From NCBI GenBank assembly GCA_965113315.1, contig OZ220377.1: a DNA stretch of 64,000 bases; one strand, 5' to 3'. The notes below the pieces were generated by a model. The model saw only the letters and a program-made list of their open reading frames with translations. It was not told the DNA's origin and did no database searches. The position numbers and the translations under genes are program-made. Below are positions 6,498-56,285 of the stretch, one piece after another (the stretch's first letter is position 1; each line of letters opens with the position of its first letter). Source of the DNA: Podarcis vaucheri (lineage: Eukaryota).

Positions 6498-7531
6498 CCC
6501 CCCCATTCAGGTAAGCAATAGACATCATCACATTTCAAGGGAGTGATCTTCCTGGGTAGATAAACCACATAAATTGAAACCACATCCAAGGCACATTTAA
6601 AGCACACAGCTTCCACCCCAAAATCCTGGGAACTGCAGTTTCCCACTCATAGAGCTATGATTCGCAGTACCCTTAAAAACTACCGTTCCCAGGATTCTTC
6701 AGGGAACATCATGCACTTTACATGTGTGTTTAAATGTAATGGGGAACATTTTCCAGCCCAAGGGCCACATTCCCTTGTTGGCAACCTTCCAAGAGCCACA
6801 TGCCAGCTGTGGGTGTGGTCAAAGGCAAAAGTAGATGAGGCAACTCACATGAGTGGGCCAATGCATCCTACCTCCCAAGTGCTCCAGAAAAAAATGGGGC
6901 ATCCTATTTTTTTCATGCAAGATCATGGTGGCCACATGACGTGTGATGCTAATTATTTCCCCCAAGAGTTAAATGATAACTAATCAGAGGCAGCTACAGG
7001 AGAGCTATGAGATTCAGGTGAGGGTCAGATGCCTTGTCAATCCCAGCAGGCATCTGGCCTGCCCAGGCCTCCAGCCTGCCCACCATTCTCCTAAAGAAAA
7101 GAAGCATAGCATGGAAGACTTGTGTATAGTACACAGATCTGAAAGGGCCACAAAGGGTAAACCACCCAAAAGGTATCCTGAAGAGTTTGCTAAAACAGTC
7201 ATAGCAGATACAGATGTTGTTAGTAAATCAGAGAAGGTTTGGGAACTGTTATGTAGTGGGTTTAACACATTTTATGTTACAAGGTGCGTTCTAACCAATC
7301 GTATAAGCACTGGTAGACGAACATTCTAATGGCAAGTAAGCGCATGGACTTTCAACTGTCAACTGTCAACTGTCAACGGTCAGTTCATGCTCAGCATTAT
7401 GACTGTGTTGTCCAGTCAGTTCGGTTCTTGTTTTCCTATGAGCGAGCTGTGGTCACTGACAAATGTTGAATAAACATAGTTGAGAAACTTATACTGCCTT
7501 GGGCTTCTGACTTTTTCCGAACATTCAACAT

Positions 7532-7549
7532 TGGTGATGAGGATGGGGT
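7532..7549 (+). other. Primer-binding site, tRNA-Ser(GCU)-type
   Basis: TGGTGATGAGGATGGGGT directly after the 5' LTR. It matches TGGCGACGAGGATGGGAT (complement of the tRNA-Ser GCU 3' end) with two CpG transitions and one other change. Confidence 0.8.
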
Positions 7550-7711
7550 TGATGAGCTCCCACTGGCTGCCAGAGGCCCAAGACCGCACCGCCGCTTGCC
7601 GCCTCGCAGTAAGCGTGACCTTACTTAGCAAATAGTCCCGGAAATGAGACCGTGCCTGCAGCATCTTCGTAACCACCCACAATCGCACAAGTGACTGCTC
7701 CAGGTCCGAGG

Positions 7712-7834
7712 ATGGCCACCAGTCATAGTTGGCCACCACTGGACCTTGATGTGCGCCTAAGAAGGAGCTACGTCCGATTACAAGGCTTCACTAGGGAGGC
7801 AGACAAGGTGGATGTGCTACTGACGGTGCTGGGA
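7712..7834 (+). pseudogene. Gypsy gag N-terminal remnant
   Basis: ATG at 7712 reads MATSHSWPPLDLDVRLRRSYVRLQGFTREADKVDVLLTVLG, resembling the K-V-x-V-L-L-T-V-I/L-G gag motif. It is fused out of frame to integrase at about 7831. Confidence 0.6.
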
Positions 7835-8570
7835 AGTTCAAAGAATTTGTAACCAAGAATGGAATCCACCACATTCATTCCACTCCTTTTCACCGGGCCA
7901 CTAACAGCCAAGCTGAACGCATGGTCCGTAATACCAAAGATGCGCTTAGGCGCATAGTGCATGGAGACTGGACTCTCCAGCTAGCGGAGTTCTTATTGGC
8001 CCAACACATCACCCCAAGTGCAATGACTGGCTGGAGCCTGGCTGAGTTGCTTATGGGGAGGAGGCCAGTGTGGTGTAGTGGTTAAGAGCAGTAGACTCGT
8101 AATCTGGTGAACCAGGTTCATGTCTCCACTCCTCCACATGCAGCTGCTGGGTGACCTTGGGCTAGTCACACTTCTCTGAAGTCTCTCAGCCCCAGTCACC
8201 TCACAAAGTGTTTGTTGTGGGGAAGGGAAAGGAGAATGTTAGCCGCTTTGAGACTCTTTCGGGTAGTGATAAAGCAGGACATCAAATCCAAACTCCTCCT
8301 CCTCCTCTTCTTCTTCTTCTTCTCACTACCCTCCTTGATCATACGCACCCCGACCGGGCTCTTGAACAACGGCCATCCACTGTGGTGCGGGGGGCTCCAA
8401 GAGAGTTCTCCCCAGGAGACACTGTGTACGTCCGAAACTATGGGCCCGAACAGGGTTGGGTCCCTAGTATCATTGCCCGCTGTACAGGTCTGGTTTCCTA
8501 CGAGGTCGGGTTGGAGGGGGGACTGGTTTGGAAGAGACACCTCAACCAGATCAGAGCCAGGGCACCTCTG
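7830..8570 (+). pseudogene. Gypsy integrase C-terminal half, interrupted by a SINE
   Basis: FKEFVTKNGIHHIHSTPFHRATNSQAERMVRNTKDALR...TGWSLAELLMGRR | LTTLLD...FSPGDTVYVRNY...WVPSII...GLVSYEV...KRHLNQIR. This covers the catalytic Glu region of the DDE core and the C-terminal domain. Confidence 0.9.
8064..8321 (+). mobile_element. Squam3B-type tRNA-derived SINE
   Basis: A-box TGGTGTAGTGG, B-box-like GGTTCATGTC and a (CTC/CTT)n tail. Near-identical copy at 60559-60840. No TSD. Confidence 0.9.
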
Positions 8571-9036
8571 AACATGGAACTTCAAGTGGAACCAAAGGAC
8601 AGAGAAATGGGTACTTCGGGAGATTCTGTGCCCAGGCCAGAATGGGAACCAGACAGGTTGCCAGTGACTGAGTTACCCCAGCAGGGCAACTTCAGGCCGG
8701 GATCCTCAGTGGCTCCATTGGCAGTGACCCCTTCGGAGCCGGCCTTGCTGACCTCTCTTGCTGACTCAGACCACGGGTACCGGAGGAACCTCCTGGGTCA
8801 CCCACTTGGGCACAGGAACCACGACGGTCCCAGCAGGAACGGAAAAGGCCAGCACACCTTGATGACTATGTTTGTTCCTTTTGTTAGGAAGTTGGGGGGA
8901 GGAGTGTTATGTATTGGGTTTAACACATTTTATGTTACAAGGTGCATTCTAACCAATCGTATAAGCGCTGGTAGACAAACATTCTAATGGCAAGTAAGCG
9001 CATGGACTTTCAACTGTCAACTGTCAATGGTCAGTT

Positions 9037-9162
9037 ACAGATAGGTAGCCGTGTTGGTCTGCCATAGTCAAAATAAAAAAATTCCTTCCAGTAGCACCTT
9101 AAAGACCAACTAAGTTAGTTCTTGGTATGAGCTTTCGTGTGCATGCACACTTCTTCAGATAC
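9037..9162 (-). mobile_element. Penelope-like element pseudo-LTR fragment inserted in the Gypsy 3' LTR
   Basis: Absent from the 5' LTR. 12-bp TSD CAATGGTCAGTT at 9025-9036 and 9163-9174. Carries GTAGCCGTGTTGGTCTG...GCACCTTAAAGACCAAC and a hammerhead motif typical of vertebrate PLEs. Confidence 0.85.
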
Positions 9163-9163
9163 C
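9124..9163 (-). ncRNA. Minimal type-I hammerhead ribozyme
   Basis: Minus strand reads GGUAU-CUGAAGA-A-GUGUG(CAUG)CACAC-GAAA-GCUC^AUACC. It has the CUGANGA and GAAA core boxes, stem II, an NUH site and stem I (GGUAU/AUACC). Confidence 0.85.
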
Positions 9164-9679
9164 AATGGTCAGTTCATGTTTAGCATTATTTCTGTGTTGT
9201 CCAGTCACTTTGGTTCTTGTTTTCCTATGAGTGAGCTGTTGTCACTGACAAATGTTGAATAAACATAGTTGAGGAACTTATACTGCCTTGGGATTCTGAC
9301 TTTTCCCGAACATTCAACAGGAACCTTCAAGCTTCCAAAAGGTCCAAAGTTGAGCCTCAGAGCATGCTGAGTCATGGTTAAATGCCATGAAGGCTGAACT
9401 TGATTCCTTAGAGAGGAACAAGACATGGGAACTAGTTCCAGGCCTGCCCAGACCACAAAAGGTTTACAAAATTTAGTTATTGCAAAAGTTTTTCAGTATT
9501 AATTTTATGCATTTTTAAAAATCACCATGGTATTTAACAATACCAGTCTTTGATGGATGGATGGATGGATGAATAGAGAGATACCCACCCACCTCCATCG
9601 CCTCAAGCAAACAAGATGCATTCTGGCCAGGGAAAAGCACTTGAAGAGAGAGCAGATCAGGGCCAGTGAGGAGTGCTCT

Positions 9680-14984: not shown

Positions 14985-15850
14985 GCCAATGACCCATCTA
15001 GTCCAGCATCCTGTTCTCACAGAGACCAATCAGATGCCTGCGGGAAACCAGCAAGCAGGATTTGAGCACAAGAACAGTTGTCTCCTGTGGTTTCCAGCAA
15101 CTGGTCTTTAAAGGTAAAGGTAAAGGGACCCCTGGCCATTAGGTGCAGTCGTGGCCAACTCTGCGGTCGCGGCACTCATCTCTCTTTATTGGCCAAGGGA
15201 GCCAGTGTACAGCTTGCGGGTCATGTGGCCAGCATGACTAAGCCGCTTCTGGCGAACCAGAGCAGTGCACGGAAACACCGTTTACCTTCACGCTGGAGCG
15301 GTACTTATTTATCTACTTGCACTTTGACGTGCTTTCGAACTGCTAGGTTGGCAGGAGCAGGGACCGAGCAACGGGAGCTCACCCCGTCGCGGGGATTCGA
15401 ACCGCCGACCTTTTGATCGGCAAGTCCTAGGCTCTGTGGTTTAATCCACAGTGCCACCCGCTTCTCAACTAGTCTTTAGAAGCATCTTTAGAAGCATAGT
15501 TATTATCGCTGCCTCCAACTGGAGGCAGAGCATAGCCTTCATAGCTAGTAGCCAACGATAGCTTTATTGTTCATGAATTTGTTGAATTCTATTTTAAAGC
15601 CATCCAAGTTGGTGATCATCACTGTGTCCCATGGGAGCAAGTTCTATAGTTTAACTGTGCATTGCACGAAAATGCGCTTTCATTTATCTGCCCTGAATCT
15701 TTCAACATTCAGTTTCGTTGGATGTTCATGAGTTCTAGTGTCATGAGAGAGGGAGATAACCTTTTCTCTGTCCACTTTCTACATGCCATGCATAGGAACA
15801 TCTATCATGTTGTCTCTTACTTGCCTTTTCTCCAATCTAAAAAGTCCCAA
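14985..15850 (-). mobile_element. Old CR1-family 3' fragment interrupted by a Sauria SINE
   Basis: Homologous to the other old CR1 copies. Minus strand encodes a degenerate LEKRQVRDNMI...HGM.KVDRE region. Confidence 0.8.
15111..15465 (-). mobile_element. Sauria SINE
   Basis: Full-length match to the 11403 copy. TSD CAACT(G/A)GTCTTTA at 15098-15110 and 15466-15478. Confidence 0.95.
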
Positions 15851-49049: not shown

Positions 49050-50233
49050 CGGTGAAATCTGCTATGATTAAATGGGCACAAGATGTTGGACATAACATTA
49101 TGATGGCTGACTGGGAACAGTTATGGACCACAGGTATGAAGTTTATTTTTTTTTTATAATAATTTTTTATTACATTTTTTCCAAATTACAAAGAAAACAA
49201 AAGGAAAGACAGAACAGAAGAAAAAAAAAAGAGAAAAAAGAACAGAAAATCATAACCATTTCGACAACTCACTTCAAATTTCCATTGGACTTCCCCACAT
49301 CTCCCACATAATGCATTCTTGATAATAAAGTTATCAGCAAATTATACCACAGGTATGAAGTTTACGGCATGTAATGCCTTAAGAGAGAATATTACGAAAA
49401 TGATATACAGGTGGTACATGACACCAGTCAAGCTTGCAAAAATCTATCATTTGCCCGATAATAAATGTTGGAAATGTAAAGAAACTGAAGGTACATTCTT
49501 TCACCTTTGGTGGACGTGCCCAAGGATTAAGGCTTTCTGGGAGATGATCTATAATGAAATGAAAAAGGTATTTAAATATACCTTCCTTAAGAAACCAGAG
49601 GCCTTTCTCCTGGGTATGGTTGGCCAATTGGTGCCAAAGAAGGATAGAACTTTTTTTATGTATGCTACAACAGCAGCAAGAATACTTATTACAAAGTACT
49701 GGAAGACACAAGATCTACCCACCCTGGAAGAATGGCAGATGAAGGTGATGGACTATATGGAATTGGCGGAAATGACTGGCAGAATCCGAGACCAGGGAGA
49801 AGAGTCGGTGGAAGAAGATTGGAAGAAATTTAAATACTATTTACAGAAATACTGCAAAATTAATGAATGTTAGAATGATGTCAGAATGAAGTTAAGTGGT
49901 TTTAGCAGCAATGTTACAAAGGAGTATGTAAAAATGGTTTGTTAACAGGTGCGAATCTAAAGTTACAATATATTAAGTTAAAGAATTAGGAGAAAAACAA
50001 AGAGGGAAAGGATCTGCTGAATTAATTAACTGAACTGGAATACAAAAAAGCGAGGTGTGAGGAGGTCAGGGAAACAAGTAAATGAAAGACAAGACATGGA
50101 AAGATTGATTTGTTTTTAAGTGTTTTTATTTTTCTGTATTTTGTATTTTTGCTCTTTCCCCCCCTTTCCCCCCTTTTTCTTATTTTTGTAACCTTTTTTG
50201 AAACTTTAATAAATATCATTTAAAAAAACAAAA
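49050..50233 (+). mobile_element. 5'-truncated L1-clade LINE (ORF2 C-terminus, 3' UTR, A-tail)
   Basis: VKSAMIKWAQDVG...WTTGMKF|TACNALRE...CWKCKETEGTFFHLWWTC (CCHC knuckle), stop at 49873. AATAAA at about 50208, then the A-tail. TSD core TTGTTGTGAGGATA at 49036-49049 and 50239-50252. Confidence 0.92.
49146..49345 (-). mobile_element. 200-bp poly-A-tailed retro-insertion (L1-like 3' UTR) inside the L1
   Basis: Poly-T at 49146. Perfect 19-bp TSD ACCACAGGTATGAAGTTTA at 49127-49145 and 49346-49364. Confidence 0.9.
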
Positions 50234-54280: not shown

Positions 54281-54470
54281 CACTACCCACCTCTTCCCTG
54301 CCTGGAGATACCACCACTGTCCCACCCTGAGGGAAATGGATTTCTGTGGGTCATCATAGTGGCATCAAGTGACATGTAGATCTCAGAATCTCCATTATTG
54401 TAACTTGAATCCATTGGTTCAAGACATACCCTCCAGAGCAGGGGAAAACAAGCTTGTTCCCTCTTCCATT

Positions 54471-56285
54471 CTAGAGAGGTTAAAAGCAACAAAAAAGGCT
54501 TTTATGGGTATGTTCGTAGCAAAAGGAAGAACAAAGAAACAGTGGGGTCACTCAGAGGAGAAGATGGTGAAATGCAAACAGGGGACACAGAAAGGGCTGA
54601 ACTCCTCAATGCCTTCTTTGCCTCAGTCTTCTCCGATAAAGAAAACAATGCCCGACCTGAAGAATTTGGAGCAAATGATTCAGCAAAGGAAACACAGCCC
54701 AGAATAACTAAGGAGATAGTACAAGAATATTTGGCTAGTTTAGATGTATTCAAGTCTCCAGGGCCAGATGAACTGCATCCAAGAGTATTAAAAGAACTGG
54801 CAGATGTGATCTCAGAACCACTGGCAGTCATCTTTGAGAATTCCTGGAGAACAGGCGAAGTCCCGGCAGACTGGAGGAGGGCAAATGTTGTCCCTATTTT
54901 CAAAAAGGGGAAAAGAGAGGACCCAAATAATTACCGCCCAGTCAGTCTGACATCAATACCAGGGAAGATTCTGGAACAGATCATTAAGCAAACAGTCTGT
55001 GAGCACCTAGAAAGGAATGCTGTGATCACCAATAGTCAGCATGGATTTCTGAAAAATAAGTCATGTCAGACTAACCTGATCTCGTTTTTTGACAGAATTA
55101 CAAGCCTGGTAGATGAAGGGAACGCAGTGGATGTAGCCTACCTTGATTTCAGCAAGGCATTTGACAAGGTGCCCCATGATATTCTTGTAAAGAAGCTGGT
55201 AAAATGCGGTCTTGACTATGCTACCACTCAGTGGATTTGTAACTGGCTGACTGCCCGAACCCAAAGGGTGCTCATCAATGGTTCCTCTTCATCCTGGAGA
55301 AGAGTGACTAGTGGGGTGCCACAGGGTTCTGTCTTGGGCTCGGTCTTATTCAACATCTTTATCAACGACTTGGATGATGGACTCAAGGGCATCCTGATCA
55401 AATTTGCAGATGACACCAAACTGGGAGGGGTGGCTAACACCCCAGAGGACAGGATCACACTTCAAAACGACCTTGACAGATTAGAGAACTGGGCCAAAAC
55501 AAACAAGATGAATTTTAACAGGGAGAAATGTAAAGTATTGCACTTGGGCAAAAAAAATGAGAGGCACAAATACAAGATGGGTGACACCTGGCTTGAGAGC
55601 AGTACATGTGAAAAGGATCTAGGAGTCTTGGTTGACCACAAACTTGACATGAGCCAACAGTGTGACGCGGCAGCTAAAAAAGCCAATGCAATTCTGGGCT
55701 GCATCAATAGGAGTATAGCATCTAGATCAAGGGAAGTAATAGTGCCACTGTATTCTGCTCTGGTCAGACCACACCTGGAGTACTGTGTCCAGTTCTGGGC
55801 ACCACAATTCAAGAAGGACACTGACAAACTGGAACGTGTCCAGAGGAGGGCAACCAAAATGGTCAAAGGCCTGGAAACGATGCCTTATGAGGAACGGCTA
55901 AGGGAGCTGGGCATGTTTAGCCTGGAGAAGAGGAGGTTAAGGGGTGATATGATAGCCATGTTCAAATATATAAAAGGATGTCACATAGAGGAGGGAGAAA
56001 GGTTGTTTTCTGCTGCTCCAGAGAAGCGGACACGGAGCAATGGATCCAAACTACAAGAAAGAAGATTCCACCTAAACATTCGGAAGAATTTCCTGACAGT
56101 AAGAGCTGTTCGACAGTGGAATTTGCTGCCAAGGAGTGTGGTGGAGTCTCCTACTTTGGAGGTCTTTAAGCAGAGGCTTGACAACCATATGTCAGGAGTG
56201 CTCTGATGGTGTTTCCTGCTTGGCAGGGGGTTGGACTCGATGGCCCTTGTGGTCTCTTCCAACTCTATGATTCTATGATTCTATG
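54471..56285 (+). mobile_element. Young 5'-truncated CR1 LINE
   Basis: Uninterrupted RT ORF, short 3' UTR and (ATTCTATG)n tail at 56262-56285. Inserted antisense into an older CR1 (54384-54469 / 56286-56381). Confidence 0.97.
54473..56206 (+). pseudogene. CR1 ORF2 reverse transcriptase, 5'-truncated (no endonuclease domain, no native start)
   Basis: Motifs [48 protein letters not shown] and RPHLEYC. No stops over 577 codons. Confidence 0.95.

Follow-up and report, generated by a model that had tools for sequence, protein, structure and literature searches.

A hammerhead-bearing insert splits one LTR of a Gypsy-like element

The question raised by this locus is whether a minimal hammerhead ribozyme, brought into an LTR by a short Penelope-like element (PLE) fragment, forms a mobile RNA-cleavage module, as a sequence-only reading had proposed, or is carried along by an ordinary insertion. 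The window (the whole 64-kb stretch of Podarcis vaucheri DNA that was analysed) displays an insert of 126 bp between exact 12-bp direct repeats (Table 1). This TSD is the sole repeat of at least 8 bp between the two flanks of the insert, and the sister (left) LTR does not carry the 126 bp; flank and LTR comparison thus agree with the earlier claim of an insert with a perfect TSD in one of two sister LTRs. The last 33 nt of the insert form its tail. On the minus strand, the first five nucleotides of the TSD copy next to the tail equal the element's own continuation (microhomology), so the 3' boundary of the insert is ambiguous by 5 nt.

Table 1. Coordinates of the insert, its hammerhead and the surrounding LTR element in the window
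Feature	Position	Strand	Basis
PLE insert, 3' part of pseudo-LTR plus tail, probably Neptune-type	9037..9162	-	sequence comparison
PLE tail with the first nine ORF codons (ATG at 9065-9063)	9037..9069	-	ORF comparison
TSD copy at the insert's 3' end	9025..9036	.	
TSD copy at the insert's 5' end	9163..9174	.	
Minimal type-I hammerhead: 4-bp native stem I, core, bulged A, 5-bp stem II, palindromic AGCU replacing stem III	9125..9162	-	
Three TSD bases that pair with 9124-9122 and give a 7-bp stem I	9163..9165	-	
3' LTR, Gypsy-like, split by the PLE insert	8905..9319	+	
5' LTR without insert, 5.8% diverged from the 3' LTR	7247..7530	+	
Internal region, short and decayed: PBS-like start, integrase remnants, nested SINE-like repeat (8064-8226), purine tract	7531..8904	+	
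LTR element 5-bp TSD, left copy	7242..7246	.	
LTR element 5-bp TSD, right copy	9320..9324	.	

The host element has paired LTRs with TG...CA ends and a 5-bp TSD on each side; inside, a PBS-like stretch follows the left LTR and a purine tract precedes the right LTR. The element is Gypsy-like, and its 3' LTR contains the hammerhead insert. Over 277 aligned positions the LTRs show 16 differences, and the decayed interior of about 1.4 kb gives a weak integrase match (rve_3, E=0.12, below the cut-off); we take these remnants to resemble Gypsy integrase. Since a Gypsy transcript would carry the antisense of the hammerhead, the LTR location adds nothing and is incidental. Among the fetched loci, identical 126-nt copies of the insert were found at 11 distinct places, and the insert is therefore far younger than the LTRs that it interrupts. 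Other repeats of the window lie at 54404-56206 (+, a 600-aa open frame), at 49256-49873 (+) and at 15116-15415 together with four similar copies; they are presumably a CR1-like LINE RT, an L1-like 3' end and SINE-like sequences, respectively. Repeats that resemble Sauria SINEs would fit a squamate genome.

The hammerhead is intact-looking and its stem I is lengthened by the TSD

The minus strand of the insert holds every core base of a minimal type-I hammerhead as published for PLEs, in agreement with the sequence-only reading. From 5' to 3' on this strand, one side of stem I (9162-9159) is followed by CUGAAGA (9158-9152) and an unpaired A (9151), then by stem II (9150-9146 paired with 9141-9137), GAAA (9136-9133), GC (9132-9131), UC (9130-9129) and the other side of stem I (9128-9125), with the cut predicted between 9129 and 9128. 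Stem II, of 5 bp and closed by a 4-nt loop, reads as a perfect palindrome of 14 nt. The features of the class are present, namely a CUGANGA / GAAA / UH core, no helix III, a palindromic 15.1-16.1, an extra base before stem II and G10.1-C11.1. The motif is single: no second hammerhead turned up when the 64 kb were scanned on both strands with a descriptor. A covariance-model match had been named earlier as one check of the motif, and no Rfam 15 hammerhead model matched the window insert or a full element at E up to 10. The window hammerhead is nonetheless real, intact-looking and minimal.

The sequence-only reading had assigned one TSD base to stem I. TSD bases do pair there, but they contribute three pairs (the 5th to the 7th), the native stem I being of 4 bp, and the extension lowers the predicted energy from -6.8 to -12.6 kcal/mol. 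The 47-nt hammerhead region folds with a z of -2.5. Stems I and II of the window copy are predicted with a probability of about 0.99, and stem I reaches 0.99 in three window contexts, as opposed to 0.00-0.02 in its native context; the window copy is therefore predicted to be better pre-formed than the parent element. In a short fragment of the native context the upstream leader pairs with the core instead, with a probability of just 0.12 in a longer fragment. By nearest-neighbour energies, which contain no tertiary terms, a catalytic dimer is predicted at -24.3 kcal/mol, two monomers at -26.8 kcal/mol and a dimer through the palindromic stem II at -43.8 kcal/mol. Monomers of PLE hammerheads are reported not to cut and dimers to cut weakly (Cervera and de la Pena 2014, PMC4209133). 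From this analysis, the window hammerhead is likely unable to cut as a lone copy.

The insert is an ordinary member of an abundant and young PLE family

In the 1.61 Gb of genome searched, a 33-nt core pattern gave 9,482 matches (control, 0) and a 24-nt anchor downstream of the hammerhead gave 14,719, numbers that count places and not insertion events, many places being in inverted pairs. A search for the PLE protein returned at least 151 matches (150 of 2,639 candidates scored), most with 93–99% identity and with open frames of up to 921 aa. The Penelope-like nature of the insert is upheld by the link of its family to an intact ORF with RT and GIY-YIG: at locus L005, RT, thumb, a CX4CxxC linker and GIY-YIG lie directly upstream of the hammerhead motif, and the ORF is intact in L105. 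The latter (L105:2333-6900, G000:C25:3428500-3438000) sits inside a LINE-like RT remnant and is a partial tandem made of a truncated copy, a pseudo-LTR (pLTR), a 910-aa open ORF and a second pLTR, its 1,549-bp repeats being 99.8% identical; its PLE family looks recently active. Along its entire length the insert matches the pLTR of an autonomous copy, with 96.8% identity. With at least 9,482 near-identical places and a 12-bp TSD that is the mode of the family, the window copy is not as remarkable as it had seemed; it is an ordinary member of a young family of about 10,000 near-identical copies. Published PLE supplements (PMC4209133, PMC11167929, 10.64898/2026.07.22.740005) may already list this family.

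The 910-aa ORF, which is carried by other copies and not by the window fragment, displays RVT_1 (E=3e-12) and GIY-YIG (E=3e-5) in Pfam, both above the cut-off, and it has a CX2-5CxxC linker and two cysteines inside GIY-YIG (residues 770-778 and 808-824); no PDB sequence matched it. The family has pLTRs from partial tandems, inverted truncated copies, a 30–40 bp tail and TSDs of variable length. Neptune EN+ PLEs (Craig et al. 2021, PMC8557442) are described with the same single ORF, RT, CX2-5CxxC linker and C-terminal GIY-YIG with two cysteines between motifs, as well as with partial tandems, inverted 5'-truncated copies and an optional tail of 30–40 bp, and we found no difference from the present family in the available part of that report. 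There the linker finger marks Neptune or Nematis and not Penelope or Poseidon. The family is thus probably a Neptune-type EN+ PLE, a placement made by a linker motif that Nematis shares.

At one locus (L032:1941-2402, G000:C1:5631940-5632401) the family forms five head-to-tail units of about 101–104 bp, each with an intact hammerhead core. This array is retrozyme-like and is the best natural dimer candidate.

Stems covary across families while dispersed copies show no core protection

A looser hammerhead pattern that excluded the stem base of the main family gave 112 matches, with at least two older families among them. In 18 aligned sequences from three families, 7 of the 9 stem pairs change on both sides, and the covariation score is 0.366 against 0.179 in shuffled alignments (0/500) and at most 0.122 in slid controls; in this set the search pattern dictates the core but not stem I or most of stem II, and relatedness inflates the shuffle test. 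The stems covary across families, and the element lineage therefore keeps the ribozyme. By these sequence comparisons, the hammerhead is under selection somewhere. The older hammerhead-bearing repeats (L229-L258, L131, L132, L220-L227 and L113, L122, L126, L228) make up at least two families, and one older family shares with the young one a well-kept 20-nt motif downstream of the ribozyme.

We looked at one old family at 30 of 60 places, picked by an anchor outside the hammerhead motif. Its majority bases agree with those of the young family at 10 of the 11 core positions; the remaining one, the G of a decaying CpG, is split between A (15) and G (13). The free position N7 and the stem pairs differ between the two families. 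The catalytic G is kept in 13 of the 30 old copies and all 11 core bases in a single one, some of the 30 being truncated. Among 117 anchored copies of the young family, 90 span positions 1–48 with at most four mismatches. In these 90, core mismatches amount to 10/990 and those elsewhere to 16/2880 (p=0.17), a comparison that leaves out positions 1–4 and the polymorphic cut-site base; the idea that the core of dispersed copies is kept better than its flanks is accordingly not borne out. The catalytic G, which lies in a CpG, is the most mutated core base (6/90 young copies). Dispersed copies show no sign of keeping a working ribozyme.

The 5' ends point to an uncut RNA template

The insert starts exactly at the ribozyme, as claimed earlier, and this is the commonest 5' end of the young family. 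It begins 34 nt upstream of the cut site; therefore, the template RNA was uncut. Across the 117 copies (inverted-pair members and three units of one array were counted singly, so that not all are independent), 46 have their 5' end within 8 nt around the start of stem I, 26 extend at least 107 nt upstream and none starts at the cut site. Concomitantly, a genome-wide pattern for starts at the cut site, which catches about 3/8 of such starts, gave 37 matches; 29 of them have the prefix expected from a fold-back, and 15 of the 20 that were fetched lie directly behind an inverted piece of the element. With none of the 117 starts at the cut site and the fetched genomic matches mostly behind inverted pieces, we rejected the idea that the copies were made from ribozyme-cut RNA.

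Full elements display a TATA motif, 20 nt and an Inr-like motif whose A lies 3 nt before stem I, and the same TATA-Inr spacing is reported for a rotifer pLTR (PMC3846280). These TATA/Inr-like motifs suggest that transcription likely starts at the beginning of stem I. An internal TATA-less promoter is described for the D. virilis element (PMC2377424). The TATA/Inr stretch of L105 (3752-3785) has, besides, the look of a splice acceptor, and its final four bases are able to pair with CUGA of the core; RNA reads of a related species gave no splice junction at this acceptor-like site. A T directly precedes the start in 16 of the 19 copies that begin at -1, and a G in 6 of the 11 that begin at +1; these bases could stem from microhomology at inversions, from the addition of a base or from copying of a cap.

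Tail junctions share a few bases with the element's continuation

A TSD of at least 9 bp was found at 76 of 99 tail junctions, with lengths of 9–17 bp, plus one of 24 in a simple repeat, and a mode of 12 bp (25/76). Two classes of 3' end lie about 35 nt apart, which matches the published PLE tail (PMC11167929, PMC8557442). The target overlaps the element's continuation by 2 nt or more in 32 of 47 junctions, and the mean overlap is 2.15 nt against 0.74 expected (two-sided geometric null; 0/200,000 simulations reach the observed value); L045-L074, selected by their long match to the tail, are not among these 47, nor are the window copy, a duplicate and four TSDs that lie in simple repeats. The window copy itself has a 3' microhomology of 5 nt. 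Such overlaps suggest pairing between the nicked DNA and the template immediately beyond the tail.

On the 5' side, the junction that gives the window copy its 7-bp stem I occurs at 320 places, while nine other junction prefixes occur at 730, two of them making up most of the first 100 matches listed. The window junction is therefore neither unique nor clearly favoured, and we dropped the notion that this TTG junction is uniquely favoured.

RNA reads of a related species are flat across the cut site

We followed the family in RNA reads from a related species (4 runs from 2 studies, 6–12% of each run, pooled loci, libraries not made for cut ends). The family motif is present on both strands at a depth of 150–400 per strand, and 88–91% of the placed reads continue into unrelated sequence. 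Depth is flat across the cut site in all 4 runs (in X23, 381/299 before and 359/297 after), with no end pile-up or dip there, standard RNA-seq being a weak detector of cut ends; the only end pile-up listed lies 49 nt upstream of the cut site, in one run. Reads of the PLE ORF are mainly in one orientation in two bulk runs. In runs X21 and X22, 19 reads on L105 show a back-joint from 3974 to 3782, i.e. from the ORF start to the base before stem I; since similar duplications exist in genomic copies (L068), this joint is probably genomic and not a circle. The flat depth in a related species, the absence of core protection and the inactivity of published monomers give no support to a mobile RNA-cleavage module, and cleavage of host RNA by dispersed copies is unlikely.

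Comparison with known PLE hammerheads

As far as the available portions of the reports describe them, the PLE minimal hammerheads of PMC4209133 resemble the present motif in being type I, in lacking helix III, in a palindromic 15.2-16.2, the extra base before stem II and G10.1-C11.1, and also in a helix I of 4–5 bp, a location in pLTRs and thousands of solo copies. They number about 9,000 in Xenopus, were reported from frog and coelacanth as solo copies by the thousands, and occur in turtle and snakes as well. In contrast, the present motif has a perfect 14-nt palindromic stem II, the window copy has a junction-made 7-bp stem I, and the family is young and uniform. PAc, the Poseidon of Anolis carolinensis (Frangieh et al. 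2024, PMC11167929), is likewise a lizard PLE with a hammerhead at the pLTR-ORF junction, with two RT start sites that define the tail, with uncut RNA as the dominant insertion substrate and with no RNA-seq ends at the cut site in the portion available. However, it belongs to the Poseidon clade and is without the linker finger, and its ORF starts in stem II, whereas here the ORF starts 63 nt past the cut site. The Anolis ribozyme cut only with protein, and its cleavage was not needed for insertion. Vertebrate non-LTR retrozymes (Li, Clavereau, Pollet 2026, 10.64898/2026.07.22.740005) also carry type-I hammerheads derived from PLE pLTRs, with many monomers; they are defined by tandem units, whereas the window copy is a solo insertion with TSD and tail, the family itself being in tandem at L032.

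Origin of the insert and rival explanations

Altogether, we consider it probable (about 0.82) that the insert is a short copy of the pLTR end of an abundant young Neptune-type PLE, likely made by TPRT of uncut RNA, and that its lone hammerhead is likely inactive. Starting from the observed family link, ORF, TSD, boundaries and copy number, we infer the steps as follows. The element's GIY-YIG nuclease would have nicked the old Gypsy LTR with a 12-nt stagger, and the nicked end would have annealed to some 5 nt of RNA immediately beyond the tail, within the ORF start, and served as primer. From there RT would have copied 126 nt as far as the start of stem I, the most likely 5' end of the RNA, and the cDNA end would have been joined to the target, possibly after a 3-nt snap-back. 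Such internal priming at the tail would copy just the 126–131-nt leader. The ribozyme would serve the cycle of the element itself, probably when dimeric in tandem transcripts or when aided by the element's protein, the dispersed window copy then being a neutral passenger.

The 5' boundary is the step at which a different account has some weight. With the same origin, RT fall-off or cDNA snap-back after the stem I/II hairpin, and hence the fold of the ribozyme and not the transcription start, could set this boundary; we regard it as a tentative possibility that falls clearly short of even odds. Fold-back junctions are common, many head-to-head inverted pairs are joined in the ribozyme region, and the 5' peak is split between -1 (19 copies) and +1 (11 copies), but native stem I is predicted hardly to form and simple non-inverted copies, the window's among them, end at the same place. 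The acceptor-like reading of the upstream motif, together with a D. virilis PLE intron that ends at stem I (PMC4209133), also speaks against a transcription start; yet no forward-skip joint is seen among the 13 RNA joints listed, and the TATA/Inr spacing fits a transcription start. A copying route through ribozyme-made circular RNA, with the insert as a monomer of an independent non-autonomous retrozyme or SINE family, is very unlikely: the five-unit array at L032 and the reported descent of vertebrate retrozymes from PLEs (10.64898/2026.07.22.740005) would suit it, but the insert matches an autonomous pLTR over its full length and holds the first ORF codons, and neither end of the insert copy falls at the cut site. 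That the hammerhead is a chance look-alike within a repeat is scarcely credible, since the missing Rfam match is set against stem pairs that change on both sides and against an old family, anchored outside the motif, which has the same core at 10 of 11 positions with a different N7 and different stem pairs.

Whether dispersed copies, the window's included, cut host transcripts, alone, in trans or with the element's protein, is a separate matter, and we hold it to be improbable. The core bases are all intact, the 7-bp stem I is predicted to form, the motif is present in RNA on both strands in a related species, the Anolis ribozyme cuts with added protein (PMC11167929) and tandem arrays exist. 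However, stem III is absent and the catalytic dimer is predicted to be less stable than the monomers or the palindromic dimer, of 9 natural Xenopus dimers a single one was active in vitro (10.64898/2026.07.22.740005), RNA reads of a related species show neither dip nor end pile-up at the cut site, and the catalytic G is the most mutated core base of young copies and is kept in 13 of 30 old ones. Besides, a crude exon scan recognised no host gene on the minus strand. A stronger version holds that insertion upgrades the ribozyme: copies that start at stem I have lost the leader, and hundreds have gained a 7-bp stem I, hence would be better than their parent, and would cut host RNA with a second copy or the element's protein. 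We find this version highly doubtful; were junction-stabilised copies to cleave host RNA, thousands of conditional cut sites would lie scattered through a reptile genome.

Significance of the insertion record

The preferred reading, a passenger copy of a young PLE, leaves the window locus of little importance, as one dispersed copy of a known kind of motif. What matters is the family: because it is young, has kept an intact ORF and numbers about 10,000 near-identical copies, its junctions record PLE insertion in vivo. We did not find the stop at the ribozyme start or the microhomology priming in print, in a search that covered few subscription papers. In this record, uncut RNA is the template, and a large share of copies stop at the ribozyme start, which is likely the 5' end of the RNA. 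Tail priming would use a few bases of pairing between target and template (mean overlap about 2.1 nt), unlike the in vitro report on the Anolis Poseidon, where priming proceeds without homology to the cut DNA (PMC11167929).
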